Source: a virus
Taxonomy: Duplodnaviria > Caudoviricetes
Length of the DNA stretch: 64,000 nt
Direction: 5' to 3' (one strand)
Virus record (IMG/VR): IMGVR_UViG_3300032247_000581
Span: 1 to 64,000 of that record
Numbering within the stretch: position 1 is the stretch's first letter; each line of letters begins with the position of its first letter. The position numbers and the translations under genes were made by a program. Shown here one piece after another: positions 7,927 through 46,467 of this stretch. The notes beneath the pieces were generated by a model. It saw nothing but the letters and a program-made list of their open reading frames with translations, was not told where the DNA came from and made no database searches.

Positions 7927-7951
7927 ACATCCCCCTATGGTTTATACCAGG

Positions 7952-8112: not shown

Positions 8113-8121
8113 CCGTTAAGT

Positions 8122-12802: not shown

Positions 12803-12803
12803 T

Positions 12804-30410: not shown

Positions 30411-30583
30411 TACTTACCTGCTTTCTTGCCTTTAACGGCTAGTTTTGTCATTTTCTTAGCGCCATACTTTTTGCGTCCAATAGCAGCGGCTACAGCTGCT
30501 GGGTCACTGACGTCACCCTTGGCGGCAATGCTCTTTTCAAGCTTCTTGAATCTAGTTCCTGTACCGAGCTTTGGTTTAGTCAT
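30410..30583 (-). CDS. Lys-rich microprotein (57 aa)
   Basis: Not in ORF track; MTKPKLGTGTRFKKLEKSIAAKGDVSDPAAVAAAIGRKKYGAKKMTKLAVKGKKAGK. Confidence 0.8.
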   Translation of the reverse strand: MTKPKLGTGTRFKKLEKSIAAKGDVSDPAAVAAAIGRKKYGAKKMTKLAVKGKKAGK

Positions 30584-30717
30584 TTTTTCTTTGCCTTTGT
30601 TTTCTTTACCTTGGTAGGTAATTTTTTGCCTTTGGGTGTCTTATCTTCCCACTCTTTAGCCATTTCTGGGTGCTGGGAATACATAAATTTTCTTTGAGAA
30701 GTAGATTTAAATGGCAT
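30580..30717 (-). CDS. Lys-rich microprotein (45 aa)
   Basis: Not in ORF track; MPFKSTSQRKFMYSQHPEMAKEWEDKTPKGKKLPTKVKKTKAKKK; TAATG and ATGA overlaps. Confidence 0.8.
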   Translation of the reverse strand: MPFKSTSQRKFMYSQHPEMAKEWEDKTPKGKKLPTKVKKTKAKKK

Positions 30718-31331
30718 TAAGGAGTTCCACCATCTAAAGAGTTAAATGGTGGCGTAGGGTTTATCGCCGCTGGGTACGGTGGATAAGTAATAACGTTTGG
30801 AGATTCCCATGTGTCAGGCACAGCTGTAGCATAGGCTAGGAATTGGTGGTCGTTTATCATCTCATCGGGCATTACCTGCATACAGTCAATAACTACCAGG
30901 GTATAGCGCTCTCCAATAATTCCTCTTTGTTGAATTCCTTGAGGGCGATAAATTTGATTTTTCCATAGGATACGACCGCGAGATTCAATATCAGGATTGT
31001 TTAAAACGTTGTTATCAATCTTTTCAATATCTCGCCCTAAAACCGTAAGATGCAAAGTATCTGCGCTATAGAAACCACGCTCACTTTGTGGAATAGCTCC
31101 CTGTCCCCAGAGAGCACGAACGATAGGAAGCTTATAAGGACCACGCCAAGATTTACCATAATCCATATAACCAACATCATAAGTTGGGTCTACAGTAGTT
31201 GTTGTAGGGTCATATACCCACCACAGAGCTTGTGTTCCTACAGGGTTCTTTAAATCGCGCTCTATACCATCTTCAACTAAATCGGTCTCAAAATCAGAGG
31301 AGAACCTGCCTAGAGGAGAGTATGAACGCAT
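30717..31331 (-). CDS. putative head-closure / head-tail joining protein
   Basis: Position upstream of neck genes; beta-rich, DP.YD...W..P, GFY..D.L motifs. Confidence 0.55.
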   Translation of the reverse strand: MRSYSPLGRFSSDFETDLVEDGIERDLKNPVGTQALWWVYDPTTTTVDPTYDVGYMDYGKSWRGPYKLPIVRALWGQGAIPQSERGFYSADTLHLTVLGRDIEKIDNNVLNNPDIESRGRILWKNQIYRPQGIQQRGIIGERYTLVVIDCMQVMPDEMINDHQFLAYATAVPDTWESPNVITYPPYPAAINPTPPFNSLDGGTP

Positions 31332-31338
31332 GGTAAAG

Positions 31339-31382
31339 ATTATCCCCTATCAGTACTAGAAAAATTGGTTAAGCGCCGATTT
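31339..31382 (-). repeat. cassette-boundary repeat, copy 1
   Basis: plus strand ATTATCCCCTATCAGTACTAGAAAAATTGGTTAAGCGCCGATTT. Confidence 0.85.
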
Positions 31383-31630
31383 TAGATAATAAGGGTGGCT
31401 GCTTCTTCTTCAGTAAGGGGAGTGCCTGCTACTAACTTGGCTTTAGCAGATACTTTCAAAGCAACAAGGGCTGCAGCTTCTGCTTCTGCTGTTGCACGCT
31501 GTTCGGCCTGTGCTACTGCCTCGGCCTCCATAGCTATAACCTCTGCAGCAGTTAGTTCAATAACTTGCTGAACATTGTGGTTTTCACATGCTGGGTCGCA
31601 GCATACTTCGACGCGGGTTGGGTTTGTCAT
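31382..31630 (-). CDS. small fibre-associated protein / chaperone (cassette D)
   Basis: ELT..E helical motif, SAKAKL C-terminus; last gene of cassette. Confidence 0.6.
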   Translation of the reverse strand: MTNPTRVEVCCDPACENHNVQQVIELTAAEVIAMEAEAVAQAEQRATAEAEAAALVALKVSAKAKLVAGTPLTEEEAATLII

Positions 31631-31639
31631 ATTGTCTCC

Positions 31640-32167
31640 TTAGTTTTTCTTGATTCCGTAAAGATAAAGGGTTGAGCCAGTGGTGAATACATCTGCCCCA
31701 CCTACAGTTCGAACTAGGATGCTAGTAATAGCAGATGTTCCTCGGTATAGGTTTGATAGAGCACCCACTGAGTTTTGAGTTGTAGAAGTGTTGTGTTCGG
31801 TTGCTCCAAGGTTAATAACTGATTTGACACCAGTAGCGGTGTAGTTTGGTATGTACGCCTCAGTATTTCCAAAAGTATTTGCTAAAGAGGTAGCGTAGTT
31901 CATACCAATAAATGATGCACCATTTTGAGAAACTTGTTCAAATCCATTGGCATTAGCGCCGCTTCCATATAGTCCCACGCTAGAGTAGTTAGTAGCGGTA
32001 TCGCCGTTATATCTAATTAGGAAGTTCTGTGTGTAACCAGACTGTGTTGAACGTGCCGATATTCTTAACACTAAATCCGTGTAGGTTTGAGGGATGGAAG
32101 AAAATATAAATGAGGTTTCACTTCCAGTAGAGGTAGCACTTGAAACCAAAACATATGTATTTGCCAT
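31640..32167 (-). CDS. fibre tip beta-sandwich protein (FSSIP.TY...LYGIK family)
   Basis: Paralog of 32168..32668 and of C-terminus of 32670..34097. Confidence 0.65.
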   Translation of the reverse strand: MANTYVLVSSATSTGSETSFIFSSIPQTYTDLVLRISARSTQSGYTQNFLIRYNGDTATNYSSVGLYGSGANANGFEQVSQNGASFIGMNYATSLANTFGNTEAYIPNYTATGVKSVINLGATEHNTSTTQNSVGALSNLYRGTSAITSILVRTVGGADVFTTGSTLYLYGIKKN

Positions 32168-32668
32168 CTATGCCGCCTTAATTCCGTAGAGAGTTGCAAC
32201 TGTTCCAGCATTGTAATTTCCAGAGTTGTAAACAAATAATCGAATACTTGTTATAGCAGCAGTGCTTCTCCATAACCCAGAAGTAAGAGAAATTTGTCCA
32301 ACAATATTTGTATCAGAAGACTCTGCGGTAAAAATGGTTTTGTTAGTAGAACCTGCGTATGAAAAAATATTAATATCAACAGTTGAATCTAAAGTATTAC
32401 TTGATTCAAACCCCAACCAAAATTGAGGTTGAGAGGTTAAAGTAAAAGTGCCTACAGCAGGTCCATGATTACCATAAAGAATAGTTGAAGAGTAGGTGGT
32501 TGTAGTAATCCCATTAAATTGCATATAAAAGTTTGAACCATCAACGCTTGGTGTTCCAGTAAGGATTAGTCTCAAATCAGTATATGTTGCTGGAATACTA
32601 GAAAAAGTAATGGATGCAGCAGCAGTTCCTAATGTTTGAGTACCAATTGGTTCATAAGTTGTTGCCAT
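32168..32668 (-). CDS. fibre tip beta-sandwich protein (same family)
   Basis: TYEPI...ITFSSIPATYTDL...W.STAAITSI...LYGIK. Confidence 0.65.
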   Translation of the reverse strand: MATTYEPIGTQTLGTAAASITFSSIPATYTDLRLILTGTPSVDGSNFYMQFNGITTTTYSSTILYGNHGPAVGTFTLTSQPQFWLGFESSNTLDSTVDINIFSYAGSTNKTIFTAESSDTNIVGQISLTSGLWRSTAAITSIRLFVYNSGNYNAGTVATLYGIKAA

Positions 32669-32669
32669 A

Positions 32670-34097
32670 TTATTTCACCCCGTATAGTGCAAAAGTAGAT
32701 GCAGTTGTATAGTTGCCAAGTTCTGAGGTCAAAGTAATTGAATTAAGTGCAGATGTTGATGCCCAGGCGCCTGAATTAAGTCGAATTTGTTCTGGAGCAG
32801 CGCCAGCATTTGAGTTGTAAACATTAGAGGAACGTAATGTTTTGTTCTTGCTAGTGGAGGAGTAATCCATAATATCTATAATCAATCCAGCCATTGTATT
32901 TGCAGGTTCATTAGCCATCGGTGTTGTCATGTCTATTAAAATTCCAGATTGACTAAAGTTAGCATTAGCATTTACTGCTGTACCATTTCCCCAAATGTTG
33001 TGCCAAGTGTAGTTACCAGCAGTATCACCATTAAATTGAACTTTAGTATTTCCTGCACCTGTGCTCGGATAAGTACTTCTAGACATCACTCTAATCTGTA
33101 ATGACTTGTAGGTGCTAGGAATACTAGAAAATGTAATTGTTCCAGATGAGCCCGTACCAGTTATAGTAGCAATAGACTCAAAAGAGGTAGGGGTTAAGAC
33201 TGTTCCGCTAACTCCGCTAGATGCAGCAGAATCTCCATTAGTATTAACCGCTTTAATATAATAGGTAGCAGTACCAACAGATAATCCTGTTAAAGATAAT
33301 GGGCTTGATGTTTGTGTTGGAGACAGTGCTGTGTACGTAATGTTGTCAGTAGAAATTTTGTAGTTAGTAATAGCAGAGCCACCTGTGGCTCCTGCTGTAA
33401 ATGAAAGCGTTCCAGTTGTTCCTGTGCCACCATCTGTAAATGTTCCGATAGTAGGGGCAGCAGGAACCGTAGTTGCAGTTACTGAGCTAGAGGCGGATGA
33501 GGCAGAGCCTGTACCGTTAGCATTTGTAGCAGTTACGGTATAGGTATAGGCAGTTGCAGATTGCTGTCCTGTTACAGTAATTGGGCTTACAGAACCAGTT
33601 CCAGTAAAATAGCCTGGGCTAGATGTGACTATGTAAGAAGATATGGCTGAACCGCCAGTTGCTGGTGTTGTAAAGGCAATAGATGCAGAACCATTATTAA
33701 ATGCACGTCCAGAGCCAGAGTTGGTTGCAGTTGGAGCAGAAGGTGCATCAGGGACAGTAGTTGCTGTAATAGAAGCAGATGAAGAAGAGGAAGGACCAGT
33801 TGCAGTCGCATTAGAAGGTCTTACTGTAAAGGTATAAGAAGTTGCGCTTTGTAGACCCGTAACAGTAATAGGGGAAGTACCAGTACCAGTAAAAGAACCA
33901 GGGGTAGAGGTCGCGGTAAAAGATGCTGCCGCCCCACCTGTGTCGGCAGCGGTGTAGGCCACGGTAGCTGCGCCGCTATTAAAAGCGCGGGAAGTTCCGA
34001 CATTAGTAGCTGCACCAACGGTGGGAGAATCAGGAACGTCAGGGATAGCCGTGACGTTATTATTGAGTCCCTCTTGGCTTATGTAACGGACGCTCAT
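32670..34097 (-). CDS. FN3-repeat adhesin D (3 FN3 + FSSIP.TY tip domain)
   Basis: P.AP...GG....Y...GL...T.YTFTV FN3 repeats. Confidence 0.8.
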   Translation of the reverse strand: MSVRYISQEGLNNNVTAIPDVPDSPTVGAATNVGTSRAFNSGAATVAYTAADTGGAAASFTATSTPGSFTGTGTSPITVTGLQSATSYTFTVRPSNATATGPSSSSSASITATTVPDAPSAPTATNSGSGRAFNNGSASIAFTTPATGGSAISSYIVTSSPGYFTGTGSVSPITVTGQQSATAYTYTVTATNANGTGSASSASSSVTATTVPAAPTIGTFTDGGTGTTGTLSFTAGATGGSAITNYKISTDNITYTALSPTQTSSPLSLTGLSVGTATYYIKAVNTNGDSAASSGVSGTVLTPTSFESIATITGTGSSGTITFSSIPSTYKSLQIRVMSRSTYPSTGAGNTKVQFNGDTAGNYTWHNIWGNGTAVNANANFSQSGILIDMTTPMANEPANTMAGLIIDIMDYSSTSKNKTLRSSNVYNSNAGAAPEQIRLNSGAWASTSALNSITLTSELGNYTTASTFALYGVK

Positions 34098-34147
34098 TTA
34101 GCTGGCCCGACACTGCTTGAAAGCATAGCAAAAAGCGCTATTTTCAT
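34094..34147 (-). pseudogene. 17-codon ORF, gene remnant or leader peptide
   Basis: MKIALFAMLSSSVGPAK with AAGGA RBS; TGA overlaps ATG of adhesin D. Confidence 0.4.
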
Positions 34148-34254
34148 CTACTAATTCCTTAATCTGGTAAGAGATTGAGAGGTCGTATGACCAGTCCTAT
34201 TAAACCATATTAAGTAGATAAAACGGGGTGTAAAACCCTAAAATTTAAAACGCC

Positions 34255-34941
34255 TTATTTGTACTCTTTTTTGTTCCACCAAAAGCGCTTATACCTGTCA
34301 AAAAACACAGTACTCATTTTCTGAGTTATCTTTTTCATATCTTTTAATTCGTTTTCGTTACCAAAATCGTGTTCCCAAGACTCTCTTTTGATAGGGATAA
34401 TTTGAACTATTGGAGTCCCAGCAGGTATTAAACCTTCGTAGTTGGGGTCTTTTAATGTAAAAGGAAAATTGATTGGGGCGGTGTAGGTGTCAGTGTCTAC
34501 TATCCCAGGAAGGATAGTAAAGACTGAATCTCGGTGTGCTGGCTGCATAATCAAAACTGACCAACCTTTGGGAGTTTTAATACTCCAAGGGTTTATGAAT
34601 TTAGGGGATGCATAATCTTTATTAGTTGCAGGATGTCCAGTAGTTTGGTCTGGTCCGTGAAATTCTATTAAATCAAAACCTGACCATTTAAAATATGGAG
34701 CACCATCTTTGGGCTCTACATAAATATCAGCAATTGTTGTAATTATGTAGCCTGCTGTAATCATATCAAAAACAGGCATACATCTTTTAATGGTTGCTAG
34801 AGCAGTCCCGTCATCAGAAGGCCTTTTCTTTTTCCCCATATATGAATCTATTTTTTTATACCAATCAGGAATGTAATTACTAGCAGGTTTAGGTTTTTCT
34901 AAGATTGTTGCTGAATAAGTATTTGTAAAAATAATTTTCAT
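34255..34941 (-). CDS. conserved phage hypothetical protein (possible dUTPase-like beta-clip fold)
   Basis: IPDWYK, TIKRCMP..D....GY, KFINPW.IKTP.G, PG.VDTD, GTP..Q.IP.KRE. Confidence 0.7.
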   Translation of the reverse strand: MKIIFTNTYSATILEKPKPASNYIPDWYKKIDSYMGKKKRPSDDGTALATIKRCMPVFDMITAGYIITTIADIYVEPKDGAPYFKWSGFDLIEFHGPDQTTGHPATNKDYASPKFINPWSIKTPKGWSVLIMQPAHRDSVFTILPGIVDTDTYTAPINFPFTLKDPNYEGLIPAGTPIVQIIPIKRESWEHDFGNENELKDMKKITQKMSTVFFDRYKRFWWNKKEYK

Positions 34942-34988
34942 TGTACTCCATCATTAATAGTCCTATTGAGTAAGCCTACATTACAAAA

Positions 34989-35210
34989 CTACTTTTTCCA
35001 ATTTTGAATTTCATCACTCCAGATAAAGGTATCTTTTAAATTAGGTTTAGGTGGATACCATTTGTCGTTTTCTTTAAACCATCCTACACCAAGAGTGCTA
35101 CCACTTAAATCAAATGGTTCGCAATCAGGAAAAAATGCTTGAGCGTCAGTTAATGAATCGCATACAACTGCATTTACAACTGTATTGTTTTTAATTAAAC
35201 CAATGTCCAT
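34989..35210 (-). CDS. small fibre-associated protein (cassette C)
   Basis: I.NN.VVN.VV...GVGW...PPKP...W.W; start moved to ATG 35210. Confidence 0.65.
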   Translation of the reverse strand: MDIGLIKNNTVVNAVVCDSLTDAQAFFPDCEPFDLSGSTLGVGWFKENDKWYPPKPNLKDTFIWSDEIQNWKK

Positions 35211-35220
35211 TATGTCTTCC

Positions 35221-36684
35221 TTACTTAACATAGATGTCTATGAATCCACCAGAGCCATTACCGCCACCTTTGCCAGTAAAACTTGTGTTACCAGTGTAGT
35301 TTGAACCTGCTCCACCACCGCCACCTGAACCTAATGATATTGCAGATGCTCCAGCATTTCCAGCATTTATTGTTTCGTTAAATCCGCCAGTACCACCGCC
35401 ACTAGCAGAACCGCCTGAACGCACACCTGGATTTGTTTGGTTAGGAGTAGTTCCTGGAGCACCACCACCACCACCTGACATAGTAGTAGCGCTAGAGTAA
35501 ACAGTTCCTAACCCAGTTAAATTCATTGTAAAGTTTGCGGCATTTCCTGCGGCTGTTGCATTACCGTTTTGGTTTGTAAAACCAGCACCGCCACTACCAC
35601 CTCTGTAATTGCCTTCACCATAACTTGTTGTGTAAGCAGAAATGTTATTCACCGCTGTATTGCCTGAGTAACCGCCGCCTGCATAAGTTCCGCAGTTATT
35701 TGTAGCTGCTTCACCACCATTTGTAGTTAGAAGGTTTGAAAACGATGTTCCACCACCAGCATTACCTCTATTTCCATAACTGCCATTGTTTGCTGCACCA
35801 CCAGTACCAGCGTTACCACCTGCTCCAATAGTAAGCAAGTATGTCGCTCCAGGCGTAACAGGATAATCTTGAACCCTGACTAATACTCCCGCACCGCCTG
35901 CACCACCACCAGAGCTTCCTGATGGACCACCTGCGTAACTTTGGCCACCCGCTCCACCACCGCCACCGCTAGCAACAAACAAAGAAAGAAGATTTTTTCC
36001 AGCAGGGATTGTGTAGTTTTGTGTGTTGGTAATAGTTCCAACAAATGAGTAGACCGCAATTGGAGTTACCGAGTTAGATGCAGACGAAGCAGTTGAAGTT
36101 CCATTTGCATTAGTTGCTGTAACTGTAAACGTGTAAGCAGTCCCTGGAGTTAATCCAGAAACAGAAATTGGGCTTGAAGCACCTGTTCCTGTTATAGAAC
36201 CAGGGGAAGAAGTTACTGTGTAGCCAGTGATGGCAGAACCACCTGTAGCTCCTGCTGTAAATGTAACAGAAGCAGTTGTAGAGGTAGGAGATGTTGCAGT
36301 ACCAATAGTCGGGGCTGCTGGAACTGTTGTAGCTGTAATAGAATTTGAGGCGCCAGATTGAATACCAGCTACGCTAGTAGAGGTAACACCAGTGGCTTGA
36401 AAAGTATAAGCAGTAGCAGATTGTAGACCAGTAACTGTTACAGGAGATGCGCCAGAGGCGGTAAAAGAACCTGGGCTTGAAATAACGTTATAGGTAGAAG
36501 GAGTACCACCAGTTGCAGCTGCTGTAACTGTGACTGTTGCTGAACCATTGTTGTAGGCACGTGAGGTACCCACATTTGCCGCTGAAATTGATGGTGCATC
36601 TGGAAAGTCCATAATCTCAGTTAAAGCTGCGAGACCGTCGGGTGTTCCTTCAATGCGCTCATCTTGAGCTCTGCGTACAGACAT
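35221..36684 (-). CDS. FN3-repeat adhesin C (2 FN3 + Gly-rich tip)
   Basis: FN3 repeats, then GGGGG-rich domain ending GG.GSGG...IY. Confidence 0.8.
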   Translation of the reverse strand: MSVRRAQDERIEGTPDGLAALTEIMDFPDAPSISAANVGTSRAYNNGSATVTVTAAATGGTPSTYNVISSPGSFTASGASPVTVTGLQSATAYTFQATGVTSTSVAGIQSGASNSITATTVPAAPTIGTATSPTSTTASVTFTAGATGGSAITGYTVTSSPGSITGTGASSPISVSGLTPGTAYTFTVTATNANGTSTASSASNSVTPIAVYSFVGTITNTQNYTIPAGKNLLSLFVASGGGGGAGGQSYAGGPSGSSGGGAGGAGVLVRVQDYPVTPGATYLLTIGAGGNAGTGGAANNGSYGNRGNAGGGTSFSNLLTTNGGEAATNNCGTYAGGGYSGNTAVNNISAYTTSYGEGNYRGGSGGAGFTNQNGNATAAGNAANFTMNLTGLGTVYSSATTMSGGGGGAPGTTPNQTNPGVRSGGSASGGGTGGFNETINAGNAGASAISLGSGGGGGAGSNYTGNTSFTGKGGGNGSGGFIDIYVK

Positions 36685-36691
36685 GTTGTCT

Positions 36692-36736
36692 AGTATCTCC
36701 TATCATTACTGGAAAAAATTGATTAAGCGCCGAATT
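36692..36736 (-). repeat. cassette-boundary repeat, copy 2
   Basis: plus strand AGTATCTCCTATCATTACTGGAAAAAATTGATTAAGCGCCGAATT. Confidence 0.85.
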
Positions 36737-36738
36737 TT

Positions 36739-37029
36739 TTAAGGTAATCTTTCTTCTAAAGGTACAAAAGCCACATAATTTAAAGCGGCTTCAATTTCTG
36801 CATTAGAAAGTTCTTTTTGTCCCCAGGTAACTTTCCACACACCATCTTGTAGTGTTGGACGTTTCATAACAGGAACATAAGGAAGTTCTAAAGTTTCTGG
36901 TTCTGTGTGCATAACCTCCACCCATGGCTCAAGCAGAGGCGTGCCTGGTACCCAAGTTGGGTCAATAAGAAGAATGTCCCCATCGTGACGAGGAAACTCA
37001 TGTGTCTCAGTGTTGTAATACATAGCCAT
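36739..37029 (-). CDS. small fibre-associated protein (cassette B)
   Basis: Start moved to ATG 37029 (TAATG coupling); EFPRH.GD...DG.W...W...LS..E. Confidence 0.65.
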   Translation of the reverse strand: MAMYYNTETHEFPRHDGDILLIDPTWVPGTPLLEPWVEVMHTEPETLELPYVPVMKRPTLQDGVWKVTWGQKELSNAEIEAALNYVAFVPLEERLP

Positions 37030-39215
37030 TATAGAACCGCCGTTTCCGCAGTAAATCCAGATGCCTGCTCTGTAGCAGAATATGTACCAGCCGTGTAAGA
37101 ACTGGTGCTGGACCATGTAGCAGAGATTCCAATTGCACTTAAATCACCCGCTGCTTCTGAAAGACTTGATGCCTCATAAATTACCGAACGACTTGCAAGA
37201 GTATACGTTCCAGTTTTTGAACCATCAACAGGAAGTTTAAGGTACGCAGGGGTAACAGGAGAGCCTGAAAGCCTTACCCCCACTAACACAAAATCATTAC
37301 TACAAGAAATGCTGTCAAATTTTGTATAACCAGATGAACCCGAAACACTTACTTGTCTTTGCCATTGAATAGTTCCAGAAGAGTTATATTTAGCAACATA
37401 CGCATACTGAGAATTAACATCAGTAAACCCAACAAATACATCACCATTAGAGTTTGTTGAAACAACTTGAATACTTCCACCAACATTGGCGGATGCATTA
37501 TATAGACGTCTTTGCCATTGAAGAGTTCCGCTAGAATTAAACTTAAATAAAATAACCCTATTATAGTATGGGCTTGCTGTTTGTGCGGAGGTACCTACTG
37601 CGTACACATTTCCCGAAGAATCTGTTGTAGAACCTTGAAAATAACTAGACCTTGTTACTGAATAAGCCGTCTGCCATTGAATTGTTCCAGCATTATTCAT
37701 TTTCATTAGATATGCTCCTTGGTATGAGCCATTAGTCATATTTCCAACACCGATTATATTTCCAGAAGAATCTACACTTCCTGAGTAACAAACAGCACTT
37801 GTAATAGGGGCAATATACACCCACTGAACAGTTCCAGAAGAGTTATATTTAATAACGTAAGTAGACTGAGCAGGGGTTCCGCTGTTATTAGCCCACCCTA
37901 TTGAATACACATTACCTGATGAATCTGCCCCACCGCCAGAATTGTACATGGAGCTGCCGTTTCCAAGAATAAAACTCTTAATCCATTGTAATGTTCCAGA
38001 AGAGTTCCATTTTGTTGTAATTCCATAATATGTTGAACCAGAATCGTTTGTTCCATAACCAAATTGATAATAGTTAAAAGAAGAGTCTAAGGCACCGTAC
38101 TCTGCTCCTTGATTTTGATTATATATATTGTTTGTATAAATTTCACGAGAAACAGTTACAGTTCCACTTCCATTTTGTTTATAGAAAAACGCACGTAAAC
38201 CACCATTTCCAGTTCTTATATTTTCTCCACCAACATAAATATTTCCACTTGTATCAATACCTCCTACGGCTTTTCCATACCCAGTTCCAGTTCCAGTAAC
38301 TGTCAATGCGGTTGCTGGGTAAGTGGTAGTAGTTGAATTAGATGCAGAAGAAGCAGCAGATGTTCCTTGAGAGTTTGTTGCAGTAACTGTAAATGTATAT
38401 GCAGTTCCTGCTGTAAGACCTGAGACAGTAATAGGGGAGGCACCTGTTCCTGTCAATCCTCCAGGAGATGAGGTTGCAGTGTAGGTAGATACTGCAGCAC
38501 CACCAGTGGCGTTTGCTGTATAAGCAACTGTTGCAGTTGTAGAACCTGTTGCAGTAGCAGTACCAATAGTTGGCGCCTGAGGAACAGATGAAGGAGTTGT
38601 AGAAGCAGATGCAGAAGATGCAGTAGAGGTTCCATTAGCATTTGTTGCTGTGACTGTGTAGGTACGAGCAGTTCCTACAGTGTCAGAAATAGTAATTGGT
38701 GAAGAAGAACTTGAACCAGTTGTTCCTGAAGATGAAGTGACTGTGTAACTAGAAATTGCAGAACCACCAGTTGCCCCAGCAGTAAATGGTACAGATACGT
38801 TTGCAGAGCCAGTGTATGACTGACCAGTAGCAACGGTAGGTGTACCAATAGTAGGCGCATTAGGAACAGTGGTTGCAGTTATAGAAGACGAAGCGCTAGA
38901 TGCAGGACCAGTTGCAGTTGTATTAGTAGCGGTAACAGCAAATGTATAAGAGGTAGCAGATTGTAATCCAGTAACAGTCAATGGTGAACCAGCACCAGAG
39001 GCAGTAAAAGAGCCAGGAGTAGAGGTAGCTGTATAGGAGGTAGGAGTACCACCTGTGGCAGCGGCAGTAAAAGCAACAGTTGCAGAGCCATTGTTATAGG
39101 CCCTGGATGTGCCTACATTTGTGGCAGCGCCAATAGTGGGTGCATCAGGTACATCAGGGATAGCAACACCGCTCTTGGTGATGCCTGATGTATTAGCACG
39201 CTTGATATTAGCCAT
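37029..39215 (-). CDS. FN3-repeat adhesin B (3 FN3 + SBBP-like beta-propeller)
   Basis: DSSGNVY..G and KYNSSGT.QW blade repeats. Confidence 0.82.
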   Translation of the reverse strand: MANIKRANTSGITKSGVAIPDVPDAPTIGAATNVGTSRAYNNGSATVAFTAAATGGTPTSYTATSTPGSFTASGAGSPLTVTGLQSATSYTFAVTATNTTATGPASSASSSITATTVPNAPTIGTPTVATGQSYTGSANVSVPFTAGATGGSAISSYTVTSSSGTTGSSSSSPITISDTVGTARTYTVTATNANGTSTASSASASTTPSSVPQAPTIGTATATGSTTATVAYTANATGGAAVSTYTATSSPGGLTGTGASPITVSGLTAGTAYTFTVTATNSQGTSAASSASNSTTTTYPATALTVTGTGTGYGKAVGGIDTSGNIYVGGENIRTGNGGLRAFFYKQNGSGTVTVSREIYTNNIYNQNQGAEYGALDSSFNYYQFGYGTNDSGSTYYGITTKWNSSGTLQWIKSFILGNGSSMYNSGGGADSSGNVYSIGWANNSGTPAQSTYVIKYNSSGTVQWVYIAPITSAVCYSGSVDSSGNIIGVGNMTNGSYQGAYLMKMNNAGTIQWQTAYSVTRSSYFQGSTTDSSGNVYAVGTSAQTASPYYNRVILFKFNSSGTLQWQRRLYNASANVGGSIQVVSTNSNGDVFVGFTDVNSQYAYVAKYNSSGTIQWQRQVSVSGSSGYTKFDSISCSNDFVLVGVRLSGSPVTPAYLKLPVDGSKTGTYTLASRSVIYEASSLSEAAGDLSAIGISATWSSTSSYTAGTYSATEQASGFTAETAVL

Positions 39216-39222
39216 GTTGCCT

Positions 39223-39266
39223 ATTGTCTCCTATGGTTACTGGAAAAATGTATTAAGCGCCGAATT
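39223..39266 (-). repeat. cassette-boundary repeat, copy 3
   Basis: plus strand ATTGTCTCCTATGGTTACTGGAAAAATGTATTAAGCGCCGAATT. Confidence 0.85.
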
Positions 39267-39585
39267 AAAGGTTTAGAAGCAATCTTAAGTCTTCTACTGT
39301 TAAACCTGTTGCACCTAACTTGTTTAGTGCAGCCTCTAAAGGCGTTGGTTTTGCTCGGCGTTCTTGACCAGGACCTCCTGCAGCATACGGTGCAGCAGAG
39401 TCAACGAGGGATTCAATGTGGTCCTCAATCCAAGTCTGAGCATCACTGCGTGAACCCCAAGCATCACCTGAAGGCCAGTGCGGTTGCAGCATCCAAGGCT
39501 CTTCTTGACCTACATGCCAGCAACGAATTGCAAATCCATCATTGTCGTCAATTTCATAGCGAAAATCAAATGCAGATACGTCCAT
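39265..39585 (-). CDS. small fibre-associated protein (cassette A)
   Basis: QP.WP.G..W....A..W; C-terminal KL...GLTVEDLR.LL. Confidence 0.65.
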   Translation of the reverse strand: MDVSAFDFRYEIDDNDGFAIRCWHVGQEEPWMLQPHWPSGDAWGSRSDAQTWIEDHIESLVDSAAPYAAGGPGQERRAKPTPLEAALNKLGATGLTVEDLRLLLNL

Positions 39586-39603
39586 TATTTATTTTCCTTT
39601 ACT

Positions 39604-41406
39604 TTATCCATTATTAGTTGAGAACATTACAGCAGTTCCATTACTCATAGCGCCTCCGCCAATGCTTACGTTTGTTAATGAAGTTCCATTAGTTGAGTAG
39701 TACACGTTACTATTTCCACTGATACCAAATACCCAAGTTCCAGCATTATTGTAAGCCGCTGATTTGTACATTTGATTACCTCGTGTAAAATTTGGACTAC
39801 CAGTAGAGGCCCATGTACCAGATAAACCAGTTGTTGTGTAATAAGCAGGTCTGTATGTGTCTCCACCAGAGTCGTATCCTGTTGCTATATAGTTATTGCC
39901 GCTTCCAGCAATTCCAGTCATAGAAAAAGTACTACCCCAAGAAGCAGGGCCAGTTGTAGAAGTAGACATATTTGTTGTATATCTAAAACTTCCTTGATAT
40001 CCAGCAATAGTAGTTCCATTAGCCAAAGTAATACTAGATTGAAAACCTTGTAACGGCGATGTGCGTGACCACGTAACACCATCATCTGTTGATATATGGC
40101 TGTTGGCATAAGCATTATTGTTTAAAGTGTAAAAAGTGCTGCCTACAAATACAACTTTATATTGTGTATAATAAGTAGAGTCAACGCTATCTATTTGATA
40201 GTTGGTCCACGTAGTTCCGTTTGTGGAACGGGTAACGTAAGCACTTGCTGAGTCGTACTTAACTCCAACAAATGCAGTTCCATTATATGCCATGGAAGTG
40301 ATATTGTCTAAAGGCGCGGAAACTGATGACCAGGTAGCGCCATCAGCAGAATAATAATAAGCGGTAGAAGAAGGAATAACATATTTATTTGCTCCGTATG
40401 TTCCTGAAAAACCAGCAACATTGCTTGTTGTATATGCAGAGGTTGTCCAAGAAGAGCCATTATCAGAGTAAGCAATTGGAACACTATTGCCTGGACCATA
40501 CGCAACAAAACGTGCTAACTGTGGAGTTACAGAGTTAGATGCAGAGGAGGCCGTAGATGTTCCTTGTGCATTAGTAGCGGTAATTGTAAATGTATAAGCA
40601 GTTCCCGCTGTAAGTCCTGAAACAGTAATTGGGCTTGTTGCACTCGTTCCTGTAAGTGACCCAGGAGAAGATGTTGCTGTGTAGGTAGAGACTGCAGAGC
40701 CTCCAGTAGCACCCGCTGTAAAAGTAATAGATGCTGATGTAGAAGTTGGAGAAGTAGCAGTTCCTATAGTAGGAGCCTGAGGAACAGAAACTGGCGTAGT
40801 TGAAGCAGATGCACTAGAAGCAGAACTTGTGCCGTTAGTATTAGTTGCGGTTACTGTATAAGTTCTTGCGGTTCCTACTGCGTCAGAAATAGATATTGGA
40901 CTTCCAGCACCCGTCGCAGTTCCACCACCAGAAGAGGTAACTGTGTAAGTAGAGACAGATGCTCCACCTGTTGCACCAGCAGTAAATGGGACAGACACAG
41001 ATGCAGTTCCTGAGTAAGCCTGTCCTGATGCAACAGTCGGAGTTCCAATAGTAGGAGCATTAGGAACGGTAGTGGCAGTAATAGAAGAAGAAGTACCAGC
41101 AGGACCTGTTGCTGTTGTATTTGTTCCAGTAACTGCAAAGGTGTAAGAAGTAGCACTTTGCAAACCTGTAACAGTCAGAGGAGATGTTCCTGTTGCAGTA
41201 AATGAACCAGGAGTAGATGTAGCGGTAAATGAAGTAGGTGTTCCACCAGTAGCAGCCGCTGTCACAGTGACTGTCGCAGAGCCGTTGTTATAGGCACGGC
41301 TTGTGCCAACGTTTGCAGCACTTACTGTAGGCGCATCAGGAACGTCGGCAATAGGCGTGACGCCTGCCATGACGCTCTTTAATGAAACCTTGTTAGTGAT
41401 AGTCAC
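39604..41406 (-). CDS. FN3-repeat adhesin A (3 FN3 + Asp-box/BNR propeller)
   Basis: YS.DG..W, STNGTTW, STDDGVTW repeats. Confidence 0.82.
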   Translation of the reverse strand: MTITNKVSLKSVMAGVTPIADVPDAPTVSAANVGTSRAYNNGSATVTVTAAATGGTPTSFTATSTPGSFTATGTSPLTVTGLQSATSYTFAVTGTNTTATGPAGTSSSITATTVPNAPTIGTPTVASGQAYSGTASVSVPFTAGATGGASVSTYTVTSSGGGTATGAGSPISISDAVGTARTYTVTATNTNGTSSASSASASTTPVSVPQAPTIGTATSPTSTSASITFTAGATGGSAVSTYTATSSPGSLTGTSATSPITVSGLTAGTAYTFTITATNAQGTSTASSASNSVTPQLARFVAYGPGNSVPIAYSDNGSSWTTSAYTTSNVAGFSGTYGANKYVIPSSTAYYYSADGATWSSVSAPLDNITSMAYNGTAFVGVKYDSASAYVTRSTNGTTWTNYQIDSVDSTYYTQYKVVFVGSTFYTLNNNAYANSHISTDDGVTWSRTSPLQGFQSSITLANGTTIAGYQGSFRYTTNMSTSTTGPASWGSTFSMTGIAGSGNNYIATGYDSGGDTYRPAYYTTTGLSGTWASTGSPNFTRGNQMYKSAAYNNAGTWVFGISGNSNVYYSTNGTSLTNVSIGGGAMSNGTAVMFSTNNG

Positions 41407-41429
41407 TGAAGTTACCTCTAACTAGTTAA

Positions 41430-41759
41430 TTAGGAGATTTCGCTGCCAAAGAGTGAGAATGAAAGGTTTGCAGAAGAAGCATAAATGCGAACGACATCTG
41501 TTGTGGCTAATGTCAATCCTAATGTCAATGCTGTTGTATCAGAGGCAGCAACGGTGGCACCATAAACAATGTAGTGCTTAGGGTCAACTGCTGCACCCGC
41601 TGGGCTTACCGCGATACGGTAGGTAGCAGCAGAGGCTGTCTGGTTGCAGATAGTAATAGTAGAGACCACAGCTGAGGTGCTTGCACCTACTGTGTATAAA
41701 GTTGTGAGAGTAGTGGCAGCGGGGTTATTTTGCGCCAAAACTTTGTATGTTGTTGCCAT
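41430..41759 (-). CDS. small beta-rich virion adaptor-like protein
   Basis: MATTYKVL.Q..P...TTLYTV...SFSLFGSEIS; heads the adhesin array. Confidence 0.6.
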   Translation of the reverse strand: MATTYKVLAQNNPAATTLTTLYTVGASTSAVVSTITICNQTASAATYRIAVSPAGAAVDPKHYIVYGATVAASDTTALTLGLTLATTDVVRIYASSANLSFSLFGSEIS

Positions 41760-41793
41760 GGGACTCCTTCGAAGGGGATAGTGAAATTATGCC

Positions 41794-43068
41794 CTATAAC
41801 TCAGGGGTTGTAGGGGTAAAACACTCTTTGTTACGGGTAACTAACTCTGGGTTTACCCATATCTGGTCTTGCATCTTATCTCCCCATTCATGGGAAGTAT
41901 CTACCAACACAAACCCATGGGAGCGCATAAATTCAGCTATCTTTTCACCTGTTACATGCTCTGGGTGTAGTTGGATGCTTTCAGTCTCTAGGTGGAAAAT
42001 TTTTACATCTTTGAGTCTATCTCCAAAGCCTTGGAGTACTTGCCATGAGTAGCCTTCAGTATCAATCTTGACTACATCAATAGTTCCCATATCCCCTGTC
42101 TTTACTAGAAGGGTATCTAAGCGAGATGTAGGAACGGTAATCTCTTTGGTCTTTCCTTCATAAAAGGATGCTGGTGGGTCTATGGAGGTATCTTTACTAA
42201 AGATAGATGAGGTGCCTAAAACCTCTATGTTATCTGTTATTACCTGATTAAAGGTTATCTCCCCATCTGTATCAGTAATGGCGCATTGATATGCATACAT
42301 CCATGGGTAGTTAGTTTTAACAATCTCATAGCATTTAGGGTTTGCATCTACGGCTATAACTTTTGTGCCTTGTAGCTCTTTATAAAGATAGTGCGCATCA
42401 TTTCCATCTCTAGTTCCTATATCAATAACAAGAGGGGCTTTAGCGCCAAAATATTTACGATAGTTGGTTATTACTGGTTCTAGTGGGTTTATATACTCTG
42501 GAGTATCGTCAATAGTATTGAGGTTATTATGAATAGCGTTTCTATACACATAATGAATATCTTCTTTGAGTAGCTCTTTCATTATAGTAATTGAGTCATC
42601 TTTACGACCTACCCACCAACCACTGACTGCTTTTTCAAAGCGCAATCCATACTCACCTGGATAATCTACCCAAACAGGAAGTGGTCCACATTTAATGGCG
42701 CCAAATGATAATCCAACCTCTGCCATAGAGTAGGACTCTTGCCATTTTTGATTTCTTTCATACCAACGAGATAGTAAGAACCATGCTTCAGGTCTAGAAG
42801 GAAGGTATGCAATAGCCTTGAGATAAAGGTTAACTACTGTAGCCTCTCTGTTTTTCTGGCTACTAAAACAATGTGCTGATTTTAATAGAGCAGCGTATAC
42901 ATGCTCTGGGTGTGAGTAATATCCATACTCTGCGGTGCGTAAATAGAAAGAGACAGCAGATGCGGTCTGCCCAATATTTTCATACTCAGTGGCGATATTA
43001 AGGCTTAATACTGGGTTAAAAGGGTCGTTAGAGAGCGTGATAATAAGGCTATTAATACGGTTATACAT
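41794..43068 (-). CDS. TPR + FkbM-family SAM methyltransferase
   Basis: N-terminal TPR helices; VIDIGT..G, VD.NP, IDVVKIDTEG...VL.G. Confidence 0.82.
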   Translation of the reverse strand: MYNRINSLIITLSNDPFNPVLSLNIATEYENIGQTASAVSFYLRTAEYGYYSHPEHVYAALLKSAHCFSSQKNREATVVNLYLKAIAYLPSRPEAWFLLSRWYERNQKWQESYSMAEVGLSFGAIKCGPLPVWVDYPGEYGLRFEKAVSGWWVGRKDDSITIMKELLKEDIHYVYRNAIHNNLNTIDDTPEYINPLEPVITNYRKYFGAKAPLVIDIGTRDGNDAHYLYKELQGTKVIAVDANPKCYEIVKTNYPWMYAYQCAITDTDGEITFNQVITDNIEVLGTSSIFSKDTSIDPPASFYEGKTKEITVPTSRLDTLLVKTGDMGTIDVVKIDTEGYSWQVLQGFGDRLKDVKIFHLETESIQLHPEHVTGEKIAEFMRSHGFVLVDTSHEWGDKMQDQIWVNPELVTRNKECFTPTTPEL

Positions 43069-44059
43069 TAAGCGCCTCTTCAATCATTGTATTAACAACG
43101 TCTTTGGGGACCTCAAGAACAAATGCGGCGTTATCAACAAACCCAAAACTAATAAGAAGGTTTTCATTATGAACAGCAGCTCCTGCAGCAAACTCAATTT
43201 GACCATCTAAAAAAGACCAAGACTCAGGAGAGACTCCAACAAGGTTAAACTCTTTATCCCATACGCATAGACGGTGACGATAAGTGCCGTTTTTTTGCTT
43301 TAAATAATTTTTAAATAAAACAACTTCATGTGTAATAGCAAGGTAGTAATCTCCCCAGTTAACAAGTTGAGAACCGCCACGTTGGTCAGCGTTTACAACC
43401 TTACCTGGGGTAACAACAACCTGTTCACACACAGGATTATCTGGGTTAGCTTTTACTACCTCTGTAGGAGATGTCCATTTGATGTAGTGAAACTCTTTAT
43501 CAAGGACAGGCATCCAGTTTTTTTCACAATATGAATTCTCATCTATTGGAGCTGGGATACGGGTGCGCTTAACTTCTTTAGCAGTCCACTTCTTCTTATC
43601 AATTTTTAGCTCTGATAACTCCATACGGCCTTGACCGTTGGTAGTGGTATCTCTACGAACACCTGTGGCATAGTATTTTCCGCCCCATTTAACTAGGCGT
43701 GCATCTTCTTCTCCTACAAATGTCCATATAGGTTTAACATCTAATTTAGTAGTGTCAATAAGAGTGTAATTAATAATATTGTAATCTTTATCAAGGCGGC
43801 AAAAATAATTAGCAGTAACTAGGCGCTGGTCTTCTTCTGGGTGTAGATAAGATAACGGCCCCCAAATACTGGGAAAACGTTGGTCATTTTCTGAGTGATA
43901 AAGCGTATAATTTATGTGGCGCAGAATACAAAGAATATCCCCATCTTCATCTATAAAGATGGAAGGGTTCATTAAGCCAGTGCCGTTAGTAACTTCTGCA
44001 GGAATGATAAGCGGTCTTAATTTACCGCCGTTTTGCACCGATTTTTGAACCAAATTCAT
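43061..44059 (-). CDS. five-bladed beta-propeller, glycoside-hydrolase-like
   Basis: NPSI, G.EDARL, EKNWMP, RGGS, IEF..G, ISFG..D; start moved to ATG 44059. Confidence 0.7.
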   Translation of the reverse strand: MNLVQKSVQNGGKLRPLIIPAEVTNGTGLMNPSIFIDEDGDILCILRHINYTLYHSENDQRFPSIWGPLSYLHPEEDQRLVTANYFCRLDKDYNIINYTLIDTTKLDVKPIWTFVGEEDARLVKWGGKYYATGVRRDTTTNGQGRMELSELKIDKKKWTAKEVKRTRIPAPIDENSYCEKNWMPVLDKEFHYIKWTSPTEVVKANPDNPVCEQVVVTPGKVVNADQRGGSQLVNWGDYYLAITHEVVLFKNYLKQKNGTYRHRLCVWDKEFNLVGVSPESWSFLDGQIEFAAGAAVHNENLLISFGFVDNAAFVLEVPKDVVNTMIEEALNV

Positions 44060-44073
44060 AAACGAATTGTAGC

Positions 44074-46467
44074 CTACATTCCACCTAACATGAAGACAGT
44101 AGGAGTCGCGTCGGCTGCTGCTGCTGCCCATTGAGTACCAGAACCTGTAGAGGTCAATACATATCCGTTAGTACCTGCTGAACCACCTGCTGTCAGAGTT
44201 CCTGTAACAGTAAGGTTAGAGATTGTTGGGGCAGTAAGAGTCTTATTGGTGAGAGTCTGTGACGCTGTAAGAGTTGCGATAGTGTCAGAGCCGACCTTTG
44301 CTGCTCCACCAGTTGCTGTGATAGTTACATCACCTGTTGCAGTAAGGTTGAGTGGGTAGCCGCTTGTAAGAGTTACCGCTCCTGTAGTTCCGTTAACATC
44401 GATAGTATTGTTAGAACCACCAGCACCGCTTCCGCTCTGGAAGTAGACAGGACCTTTAAGTGTTGGGCTTGTACCAAATACTAGAGAACCAGAACCAGTT
44501 TCATCTGTAACCGCTGTTGTTAAGTTTGCAGATGTTGGAGTAGTTAAGAAATTTTGTACACCTGTACCTAAAGCAAATGAGAATCCGCCTTGAGTACCCT
44601 GGGTTCCCTGAGAACCTGTAGCGCCTTGAGTTCCAGTTGCACCTTGTGTGCCTGTTGTGCCCTGAGCACCTGTAGTACCTTGAGCACCAGTAGTTCCTGT
44701 GGTTCCCTGTGTACCAATAGAGCCTTGAATACCTTGTGCACCTGTTGTACCAGTAGTTCCCTGAGTTCCAGTAGAGCCTTGAGTACCTGTAGCGCCCTGT
44801 GTACCAGTAGTACCAGTGGCTCCTTGAGCTCCAGTGGTGCCTTGAGCACCGATAGTGCCTTGTGCACCAGTTGTACCCTGTGTACCAGTAGTTCCTTGTG
44901 TACCTGTTGCGCCTTGTGTACCAGTGTTTCCTTGTGTACCTGTAGAACCTTGTGTTCCTTGAGCTCCAGTGTTACCAGTAGTGCCTTGTGCACCTGTAGT
45001 GCCCTGTGCTCCTGTTGAACCAGTAGCACCTTGTGCTCCAGTCGTACCTTGTGAGCCAGTGGTACCTTGAACTCCTTGAGGACCAGTATTACCTTGAGTA
45101 CCTTGCGCACCTTGAAGACCAGTTGTAAAAAGAACTAGTTCAAGAGCAGTTCCCCCAGTAAATGAATTGCTTCCAGAACCGCCGTCACCAACGCTAGTTA
45201 CTGGAATCTTTACATAACTGTTAGAAACAACTGTAGGTGAGCCTGTAACTTGAAATGTAATGTAAGTATTTGAATCAGTTCTCTTTTGAATAATAATGTT
45301 GTCATATTGTTTTACAAGTCCCAAATAAACATCAATATCTACGTTTGAATCATTGATGTGGTCTACGTAGAGATATGTTGCAGAGGTTTGTGTTGCATTA
45401 TTAAACCTTAATTGACCACTGCCTGGTTTTGTATCTGAAGTAGTTGCATCAAGTGTGTAATTAAAGTTAGAGGTAGAACCACCAGCAGCACCAGTAGTAC
45501 CTTGTGAACCAGTATTTCCCGTAGTTCCTTGGATACCTTGTGTACCTGTTGCTCCCTGCGTACCAGTTTGACCTGTAGAGCCTTGTGCTCCAGTTGTACC
45601 TTGTGAGCCTGTGATTCCTTGAGTACCCTGGCTACCAGTAGTACCTTGTGAGCCAGTTGTACCTTGGATACCTTGTGTACCCGTAACACCTTGTGCACCT
45701 GTAGAGCCTTGTGTACCAGTGTTACCAGTTGCACCTTGAGCACCAGTGGCACCTTGTGCGCCAGTAGTTCCTTGTGAGCCAGTGGTGCCTTGTGAGCCTG
45801 TGTAGCCCTGAATACCTTGGATACCAGTTGTACCTTGAGAACCTGTTGTGCCTGTTGTTCCTTGGGTTCCAATAGTTCCTTGAATTCCCTGAGCACCAAT
45901 ATTACCTGTTGTGCCTTGCGCCCCTGTGGTTCCTTGAGCTCCTGTGGAGCCTTGTGTACCAGTAGTTCCTTGTGGGCTTTGAATACCCTGAGTTCCTTGA
46001 ACTCCCTGTGTTCCTTGTGCACCAGTACTGCCCTGTGTGCCAGTTGCACCTTGTGTACCAGTAGTGCCTTGGCGTCCTTGTACACCTTGTGTACCTTGCG
46101 CTCCTGTTGTTCCTTGAACTGTTGGAACATTAACATCAATAGTTTGGGCGCCAGAATTATATGTAAATGAGATATTTTGTAATGAACCGCTGTTTAGTGC
46201 AGTTGCTACACGTGAATTAGTAAAGTACTTATTGGTTACACCCTCTGATAAATCATCAGTTGTATTGAGAGCAGCACCAGAAATTAAATTGGCAACTGCT
46301 GCTTGGTCAACAAAATACTCTAGTGAACTCCAGTGTGTGCTGCCGCCTACTCCTACTTTAAGTTTTCCAGTGTCGGTTTCAAAACCAATTTCACCTTCAG
46401 AAAGAATAGGATTAGCAGAAGTCCATTGTGAGGATGTGCCTCTGCGAACTTGAAATTTTGTTGCCAT
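44074..46467 (-). CDS. collagen-like fibre with Mtd/hyaluronidase-type N-terminal domain
   Basis: Q.RRGT..QW..ANP.L.EGE.G.ETDTGK.K.G; two long Gly-X-Y tracts; ends FMLGGM. Confidence 0.85.
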   Translation of the reverse strand: MATKFQVRRGTSSQWTSANPILSEGEIGFETDTGKLKVGVGGSTHWSSLEYFVDQAAVANLISGAALNTTDDLSEGVTNKYFTNSRVATALNSGSLQNISFTYNSGAQTIDVNVPTVQGTTGAQGTQGVQGRQGTTGTQGATGTQGSTGAQGTQGVQGTQGIQSPQGTTGTQGSTGAQGTTGAQGTTGNIGAQGIQGTIGTQGTTGTTGSQGTTGIQGIQGYTGSQGTTGSQGTTGAQGATGAQGATGNTGTQGSTGAQGVTGTQGIQGTTGSQGTTGSQGTQGITGSQGTTGAQGSTGQTGTQGATGTQGIQGTTGNTGSQGTTGAAGGSTSNFNYTLDATTSDTKPGSGQLRFNNATQTSATYLYVDHINDSNVDIDVYLGLVKQYDNIIIQKRTDSNTYITFQVTGSPTVVSNSYVKIPVTSVGDGGSGSNSFTGGTALELVLFTTGLQGAQGTQGNTGPQGVQGTTGSQGTTGAQGATGSTGAQGTTGAQGTTGNTGAQGTQGSTGTQGNTGTQGATGTQGTTGTQGTTGAQGTIGAQGTTGAQGATGTTGTQGATGTQGSTGTQGTTGTTGAQGIQGSIGTQGTTGTTGAQGTTGAQGTTGTQGATGTQGATGSQGTQGTQGGFSFALGTGVQNFLTTPTSANLTTAVTDETGSGSLVFGTSPTLKGPVYFQSGSGAGGSNNTIDVNGTTGAVTLTSGYPLNLTATGDVTITATGGAAKVGSDTIATLTASQTLTNKTLTAPTISNLTVTGTLTAGGSAGTNGYVLTSTGSGTQWAAAAADATPTVFMLGGM
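44588..46115 (-). repeat. Gly-X-Y coding tandem repeats (two tracts, approximate bounds)
   Basis: 9/18-nt periodicity encoding QGTTG(A/S/T). Confidence 0.85.

Follow-up and report, generated by a model that had tools for sequence, protein, structure and literature searches.

The virus genome IMGVR_UViG_3300032247_000581 carries, between its capsid and tail genes, an array of fiber genes in which a ~44-bp element recurs at three gene junctions. We conclude that this element is probably an expression-signal-like junction that, together with the conserved stalk of the fiber genes, supplies homology for the recombinational exchange of cassettes, and that it does not act as an attachment site. The virus record from which the window comes is complete, measures 95,920 bp, and has direct terminal repeats; the window covers its first 64 kb. 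The best explanation for the region as a whole, as far as the sequence tells, is that it represents the variable fiber (receptor-binding) locus of a lytic myovirus infecting low-GC freshwater Actinobacteria.

The array is built around four fiber genes, FN3a to FN3d (coordinates of all features are collected in Table 1). All four proteins passed the Pfam cutoff for the fibronectin type III (FN3) domain (PF00041; 33 to 53 bits versus a cutoff of 25). They can be aligned over an N-terminal peptide of 20 to 30 amino acids and the two or three FN3 repeats behind it, with many invariant columns, and are unalignable beyond that point. A preliminary description of this DNA, made from the sequence alone, had proposed four paralogs with a common FN3 stalk and unrelated tips; the coordinates (on the minus strand), the domain assignment, and the loss of alignment after the stalk were all borne out. 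The paralogs are 43 to 53% identical to each other. Judged by their sequences, they are old, and no recent duplication is visible among them. Their position in the structural gene block and the PHROG matches of array proteins to minor tail and tail fiber families mark the FN3 proteins as putative receptor-binding fibers.

Read on the coding strand, each copy of the element extends from the stop codon of the upstream gene, or just after it, to 7 nt before the ATG of the next gene. These limits agree with those given in the preliminary description, and the core of the repeat was found at all three of the sites named there. The element consists of a GC-rich word (TCGGCGC in this genome), TTAA, 3 nt, a T run, CYAGTA, 2 to 3 nt, and ATAGGRGAYAMT, after which 7 nt lead to the ATG. 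We distinguish a 5' half (the GC-rich word plus TTAA) and a 3' half (the T run, CAGTA, and ATAGGRGA, with a further 12 nt up to the ATG). Within the window there are three occurrences of the exact core TCGGCGCTTAA, all at array junctions, and the whole genome has no others. A profile built from the copies of relatives recovered the three window copies with E values of 1e-11 to 1e-17. A fourth, degenerate copy at positions 34940 to 34983 was considered (61% identity) but was not recovered by the profile and was rejected. Because the 11-nt core and every submotif tested occur genome-wide only at the three junctions, the element is not a general promoter of the genome; an ordinary late promoter spread over the genome, which the preliminary description had named among the things that would refute its reading, does not agree with three copies in a complete genome. 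The last copy precedes g204, which is a conserved gene and not an adhesin, as had been noted.

The signal content of the element was limited. A scan of the three copies for a sigma-70 consensus found no site, and the earlier suggestion that the repeat serves as a promoter was not supported in this form. No terminator-like hairpin was present at the three copies, RNAalifold on 24 copies yielded -1.26 kcal/mol and no conserved helix, and the element had neither dyad symmetry nor an attC-like imperfect palindrome. A scan of positions 30500 to 42500 against Rfam 15 gave no match at an E value of ≤1. Most likely, the 3' half is a translation initiation signal; alternatively, it could contain the -10-like box of a leaderless transcript. 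Leaderless transcripts are common in Actinobacteria, and the GAYAMT box lies exactly 7 nt from the ATG in 24 of 24 IMG/VR copies.

We searched for the element by pattern and by profile in IMG/VR and in metagenomes and found it in about a dozen further contigs, which are a subset of the 364 contigs encoding a relative of g109, the gene that opens the array. Among 80 loci fetched from these 364 contigs, 10 carry the element. The IMG/VR relatives contain 24 distinct copies, and the metagenomes contain more. Every one of the 24 IMG/VR copies is located directly before the ATG of an FN3 gene beginning with MANIKR (B type), an FN3 gene beginning with MS(V/I)RRA (C type), or a g204 homolog. The A-type FN3 gene (MTITNK) always starts about 23 nt after g109, without the element. 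The repeat precedes g204 in seven of the eight repeat-bearing genomes where g204 was seen, the exception being genome G001. Stalk types A, B, and C are 60 to 87% identical across genomes and mostly keep the order A-B-C, with two to four FN3 genes per array and 2.3 to 10.4 kb between g109 and g204. A fixed cassette set in relatives, named beforehand as the result to be expected if the cassette idea were wrong, was not what we found: the sets vary.

To locate the boundaries of this variation, we compared the array with six relatives by blastn. The homology blocks started within ~15 nt of the 5' edge of the element and ended 475 to 700 nt into the stalk; for the C type, the end was in every case near codon 207, which is the boundary between stalk and tip. 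The DNA between the blocks, comprising the tip and the partner genes, was nonhomologous. The coincidence of breakpoints with the repeat and the FN3 stalk that the preliminary description had anticipated was thus found. At orthologous junctions, mean pairwise identity was 0.93 to 0.94 in the 30 nt preceding the ATG, 0.87 to 0.91 over the first ~95 coding nucleotides, and 0.7 to 0.8 in the stalk; upstream of position -45, it was at the random level (0.3).

We then removed the stalks of 31 FN3 genes from 12 genomes and clustered the remaining tips, which fell into at least 10 families. The largest family (family 0) and the D domain are each found on stalks of all three types, A, B, and C, and the propeller of tip B, which sits on a B stalk here, is on an A stalk in locus L091. 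The modular layout of receptor-binding proteins, with a conserved N-terminal part and unrelated, replaced C-terminal domains, is therefore present, with at least 10 tip families on stalks A, B, and C. Each tip family was followed by its own partner family, as had been proposed: tip family 0 by small-protein family 2 (10/10), tip family 2 by a two-gene pair (5/5), the tip B propeller by relatives of p125 (3/3), and the D domain by its own paralogs and then p82. Homologs of p125 were seen behind tip B-like tips in L091, L021, L126, and L123, and p106-like genes stood behind other tips in L054, L108, and L124. Because of the breakpoints and the constant follower of each tip family, the exchanged unit is, by this comparison, the 3' part of the fiber gene plus its partner gene or genes.

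The element itself was found to be composite. The 3' half goes with the downstream gene in every copy. The variant of the 5' half, on the other side, follows the upstream partner family, with family 2 accompanied by AATACTTTTTT in four of four cases and p82 by AACCAATTTTT in four of six, and each 5'-half variant was found combined with all three downstream gene types. The D cassette (FN3d to p82) comes after the other cassettes here and ahead of them in G001. In G001, the element after p82 has the 5' half of copy 1 of the present genome, and its 3' half and the next codons are those of copy 3.

We propose the following model. Each fiber consists of a short type-specific N-terminal peptide, an FN3 stalk of two to three repeats, and an unrelated distal tip, and the one to three small genes behind the fiber gene always travel with that tip. 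The 3' half of the element is a 5' leader that the downstream gene conserves, and the 5' half belongs to the 3' flank of the upstream cassette. Such a junction is shared by several genes and by co-occurring related phages and has several hundred bases of FN3 stalk behind it, so that junction and stalk could provide the homology for general recombination by the RecA of the phage or by the host. With one crossover each in stalk and junction, a tip and its partner or partners would be replaced as a unit, and crossovers between different copies of the element would move, add, or delete whole cassettes. The recombination partners could be coinfecting relatives or copies within one genome. We infer both the recombination mechanism and the expression role of the element. 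General homologous recombination would explain the locus better than an attachment site because the element is composite, the left breakpoints lie in the coding stalk, and dyad symmetry is lacking.

A Pfam search of the whole genome found no resolvase/invertase (PF00239), tyrosine integrase (PF00589), or reverse transcriptase (PF00078), and a RecA homolog is encoded. The preliminary description had reported the absence of an invertase, integrase, and reverse transcriptase from the window, and this absence extends to the complete genome. Two of its other ideas are not supported. It had viewed the repeat as an attachment site duplicated on each insertion; no site-specific recombinase is encoded in the complete genome, and the composite halves fit ordinary homologous crossovers. 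It had also expected a mainly accordion-like gain and loss of cassettes. Slots A, B, and C keep their positions across genomes and FN3 gene number ranges only from two to four, and as judged from the arrays compared here, replacement of the tip plus partner dominates over accordion-like change.

Several observations weigh against the proposed role of the element. Loci L021, L078, L080, and L083 lack the element and have equally variable arrays, whose junctions are of the ordinary Shine-Dalgarno kind. Because of this, the element is neither necessary nor clearly causal, and a requirement of the repeat for cassette change is not supported. There are two FN3 genes in L021, and in L078, L080, and L083 the D-domain units are duplicated, with only a short degenerate version of the element behind p82. 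The breakpoints at the element may reflect gene boundaries at which selection tolerates junctions. In addition, the nearest relative is ~80% identical at the nucleotide level, so the events are undatable, their rates are not estimable, and no recombination event was directly observed. The translation signal reading is itself not clean because the distance from AGGAG to the ATG is 12 nt in the element and 6 to 9 nt in other late genes of the phage.

The strongest alternative, which we consider possible although clearly less likely than the exchange model, is that the element is only an expression signal (a translation initiation region or a leaderless-transcript promoter recognized by the actinobacterial host or a phage factor) that coregulates the second and third fiber genes and g204. 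It would have no special part in recombination and would mark cassette boundaries merely as gene start sequence. The peak of conservation in the 30 nt before the ATG and the first ~95 coding nucleotides speaks for such a signal, as do the invariable spacing of the GAYAMT box in the 24 IMG/VR copies and the strict tie between the 3' half and the downstream gene, and the equal variability of arrays without the element points the same way. However, the homology blocks start at the 5' edge of the element and not at the ATG, and the 5'-half variants track the upstream partner family while combining with all three downstream types. The G001 junction is chimeric between two copies of the present genome, the element is kept without its downstream gene in three contigs, and no sigma-70 consensus was matched.

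A second alternative concerns the function of the proteins and is compatible with either account of the repeat. The FN3 proteins could be head or neck decoration fibers (of the Hoc or whisker kind), with variable ends for loose adherence to surfaces or particles. The array does lie between the capsid and collagen fiber genes and the neck and sheath genes, and the 20 to 30 amino acids ahead of the first FN3 repeat would make a short tail anchor. Decoration proteins also reportedly often carry FN3 and Ig-like domains, as Fraser et al. are said to have described in 2006. We nevertheless regard this alternative as unlikely, since the PHROG matches are to minor tail and tail fiber families, a tailspike is annotated at the equivalent position of phage LuckySocke, the look-alikes of the D domain in BFVD are fused to tail fiber repeats and collagen, and tip-specific partner genes are typical of tail fibers.

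A more far-reaching version of the exchange model, which we hold to be improbable, would make the element a dedicated cis-acting recombination hotspot (for instance chi-like or nuclease targeted, in the RecA pathway of the phage). Phage populations would then continually reshuffle a pool of tips plus partners among three to four fixed slots, and the D paralogs would form a heterotrimeric tip. Finally, a dedicated integron-, shufflon-, or homing-like system acting site-specifically on the element to insert, excise, or reorder cassettes would account for direct repeats in one orientation at cassette boundaries, for an exact 11-nt core common to the three copies of the genome, and for cassettes without promoters of their own, but is very improbable given that the complete genome lacks a resolvase/invertase, tyrosine integrase, and reverse transcriptase, that neither dyad symmetry nor a conserved fold is present in the element, that the core word is not conserved in relatives, and that the left breakpoints lie inside the FN3 stalk and not at a second copy of the site.

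Several individual contigs show unusual arrangements of the element. In L091 (positions 3243 to 3620), a deletion scar runs from one element through what is left of a B-type FN3 gene (10 codons, MANIKRAKDK) and p82 to a second element. In the metagenome contigs L124 (1396 to 1560), L130 (2938 to 3117), and L132 (2347 to 2540), the element is followed not by a gene but by a strong GC-rich terminator-like hairpin with a T tail, and the DNA beyond the hairpin looks noncoding. The join to the hairpin is 6 nt before the ATG position in two of the three contigs, and fragments of the first codons remain in the third; in L132, the first bases of the C-type open reading frame (ORF) are tandemly duplicated at the join. 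Contig Ga0214917_10000111 (92,844 bp; L108 and L126), a near-complete relative, has two element copies. Its slot 1 seems to contain a tip B-like propeller with a p125-like gene, and slot 2 an Asp-box-like tip with a p106-like gene. The apparent reversal of the A and B tip order in this contig is based on weak similarity in two short pieces only.

We compared the element with known joints at which phage genes are exchanged. The promoter-early stem-loop (PeSL) of T4-type phages combines a strong sigma-70-like early promoter with a terminator stem-loop and occurs in many copies in the hyperplastic regions, which hold early accessory genes (Arbiol et al. 2010, PMC2839356; Comeau et al. 2014, PMC4122927). 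Like the element described here, the PeSL is a short conserved intergenic sequence in one orientation that flanks variable genes, coincides with the breakpoints of insertions, deletions, and replacements, and is thought to act via homologous recombination. In contrast to the PeSL, the present element has neither a sigma-70 promoter nor a hairpin and is found in three copies at a late structural fiber locus of actinophages. We therefore rejected its classification as a PeSL, which it resembles in its breakpoints and not in its promoter or stem-loop.

Another close parallel is offered by lytic coliphages (kutter-, gamaleya-, kaguna-, and kayfunaviruses and others), in which conserved DNA motifs flank the receptor-binding domain of the tailspike (PMC10408124). 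As in our array, those tailspikes have a conserved N-terminal anchor and an exchangeable C-terminal domain and are encoded by tandem genes; one motif marks where the conserved coding part ends, and the other lies in the noncoding DNA behind the gene; and the motifs, conserved above their surroundings, were proposed to be recombination hotspots (PMC10408124). The downstream motif of the coliphages is 20 nt long and terminator-like, whereas ours is a ~45-bp leader-like element abutting the next start codon. Unlike the coliphage motifs, it is also located before a nonfiber gene (g204), and the array has an FN3 stalk and includes separate partner genes in the exchanged unit. In the tip-plus-chaperone units of T-even, Mu, and P2-type phages (gp37/gp38, S/U, and H/G; for adhesin mosaics of the T4 family, see PMC3157838), a distal fiber part and the small gene behind it are swapped together, as here, but no similarity to Tfa or gp38 could be detected in the present partners, an invertible segment and an invertase are both absent, and there are four fibers versus one. 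Integron cassettes (attC/IntI) are likewise one-orientation promoterless units separated by a repeated element; here, however, there is no integrase (PF00589) and no attC-like palindrome, and the left boundary of the unit is inside a coding region. Invertible segments and shufflons were rejected on the direct orientation of the copies and the absence of PF00239 and PF00589, and a diversity-generating retroelement was rejected on the absence of a reverse transcriptase (PF00078) from the genome. What sets the array apart from both the PeSL and the coliphage motifs is the leader-like ~45-bp element, the nonfiber target gene, the FN3 homology arm, the partner genes in the unit, and the actinophage lineage.

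Low-GC freshwater Actinobacteria are among the most abundant bacteria of lakes, and their phages are almost entirely uncultured. The locus offers a concrete map of variation in host recognition, with three to four fixed stalk slots, at least 10 tip families with their helper genes, and a recognizable DNA joint. The joint and the stalk types can be used as anchors for mining fiber tip diversity in metagenomes, an approach already proposed for coliphage tailspikes, and the tip-partner pairs are candidates for new fiber-chaperone families. We see the array as a clear new example of a known principle by which phages change host recognition, not as a new principle of recombination. If the hotspot version of the model were true, it would imply a recombinase-independent, population-level diversification of host range in abundant uncultured freshwater actinophages.

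Table 1. Features of the fiber array, listed in the direction of transcription (window coordinates)
Feature	Position	Strand	Description
g109	41430..41759	-	Conserved 109-aa protein opening the array; first FN3 gene 23 nt on, no repeat between
FN3a	39604..41406	-	600 aa; A-type N terminus MTITNKVS; three FN3 repeats; tip A
p106	39265..39585	-	Partner gene of tip A; no Pfam or PHROG match
Repeat copy 3	39223..39266	-	p106 stop to FN3b start; 3' half of B type
FN3b	37029..39215	-	728 aa; B-type N terminus MANIKRAN; three FN3 repeats; beta-propeller tip B
p125	36739..37029	-	Partner gene of tip B
Repeat copy 2	36692..36736	-	p125 stop to FN3c start; 3' half of C type
FN3c	35221..36684	-	487 aa; C-type N terminus MSVRRAQD; two FN3 repeats; glycine-rich tip C
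p80	34989..35231	-	Small gene after tip C; ORF only, no Pfam or PHROG match
p228	34255..34941	-	Conserved accessory gene; phrog_7084, weak DUF6065 match
Spacer before FN3d	34098..34254	-	157 nt, no repeat
FN3d	32670..34097	-	475 aa; C-like N terminus MSVRYISQ; three FN3 repeats; lectin-like beta-sandwich tip D
p166 and p175	31640..32668	-	Two free-standing paralogs of the tip D domain
p82	31382..31630	-	Ends the D cassette; relatives conserve it behind their D-domain trios
Repeat copy 1	31339..31382	-	p82 stop to g204 start; 3' half of g204 type
g204	30717..31331	-	Conserved gene closing the array and opening the neck/tail block

The tips differed in how well they could be identified. The preliminary description had assigned an Asp-box propeller to tip A, a second propeller to tip B, a glycine-rich domain to tip C, and a sandwich fold to tip D. 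These identities were only partly verified. A propeller is supported for tip B, which has five GT(L/V/I)QW repeats and matches the CylK beta-propeller with an E value of 1e-5, and a sandwich is supported for tip D, with a confident beta-sandwich AF2 model (pLDDT of 89.8). Tip C remained just below the cutoff for Gly_rich_2 (23.5 versus 24.3 bits), and tip A showed four Asp-box-like motifs at a spacing of about 40 residues, with an unusable AF2 fold model from the single sequence (pLDDT of 36). Searches of PDB sequences with g109, g204, and tip A returned nothing useful. The structure matches of the D domain in BFVD (TM scores of 0.8 to 0.9) are viral proteins that occur as fusions with FN3, collagen, glycine-rich, or lambda Stf repeats. 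Its fold matches in PDB include lectins, GH32 C domains, C1q/TNF, and one archaeal virus tail fiber; they reflect a generic beta-sandwich likeness only (Z scores of ≤8.2), and we did not assign a family from them.

The D domain (positions 31640 to 33185 in the window) always occurs as three consecutive paralogs. In distant relatives, the whole trio is duplicated (L078, positions 7579 to 10833 and 11515 to 14782; L080; and L083), and the domain there forms the N terminus of proteins of 420 to 470 amino acids. The second and third paralogs of these relatives have C-terminal extensions of ~270 amino acids that end in a conserved GGSG(L/I)(V/I)(I/V)VRY-like motif. One idea is that the three paralogs might assemble into a heterotrimer.

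The preliminary description had called each partner gene unrelated to the others, which is only partly correct. p166 and p175 are paralogs of the tip D domain, and p106 and p82 belong to one family by single-linkage phmmer via intermediates, with no alignment found by direct BLAST of one against the other. p82 also gave a weak lead to XkdW (language-model score of 0.87), which is only a lead. The partner genes had no Pfam or PHROG match, and no likeness to Tfa- or gp38-type chaperones was detected. From their strict co-inheritance with the tips only, we infer that they may be tip-specific assembly factors, chaperones, or accessory factors. The start of p125 is most likely the ATG at position 37029, in a TAATG overlap with the stop codon of FN3b, giving a product of ~96 amino acids.

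At the upstream end of the array, g109 has PHROG matches to the N termini of tail fiber proteins and no Pfam or PDB sequence match. The IMG/VR contigs that encode its relatives range from 4 kb to 367 kb, and it is regularly found upstream of variable fiber-like genes. g109 may be a widespread adaptor or anchor protein outside any Pfam family. The accessory gene p228 usually lies directly before the element and g204 in relatives and is in the middle of the array here. The spacer before FN3d has the sole sigma-70-like promoter match among the intergenic spacers of the array (TTTACA-16-TAATAT). It also contains a 16-codon mini-ORF (within positions 34098 to 34254) that ends in a TAAATG overlap with the start of FN3d.

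Every gene of the region is on the minus strand. In the 5'-to-3' direction of that strand, the terminase, portal, and major capsid protein genes are followed by two collagen-like fiber genes, a GH130-like gene, an FkbM methyltransferase/TPR gene, g109, and the array; behind it come g204, several microproteins, the tail sheath, and the tail tube. The major capsid protein shares 73% identity with its counterparts in the Streptomyces phages LuckySocke and BRock and 44% with the one in Bacillus phage BCD7, and the annotated LuckySocke tailspike is at the equivalent spot, between capsid and sheath. The genome has a G+C content of 42% and two WhiB family genes (positions 1836 to 2060 and 60964 to 61149), and because of these two features, a host among the low-GC freshwater Actinobacteria fits.

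The two genes upstream of g109, g429 (FkbM methyltransferase/TPR) and g356 (GH130-like), form a two-gene module (positions 41794 to 44131; seen in loci L021 to L094). In this genome and in 8 relatives among those fetched, the module runs in the same direction as the structural genes, and it is inverted as a whole in 27 others. Divergence tracks orientation (76 to 89% versus 60 to 67% identity). Around the module, we found only short, chance-like pairs of inverted repeats. Because orientation follows sequence divergence, this looks like an old fixed inversion and not a switch. The gene content of the module suggests glycan modification, perhaps of virion proteins.

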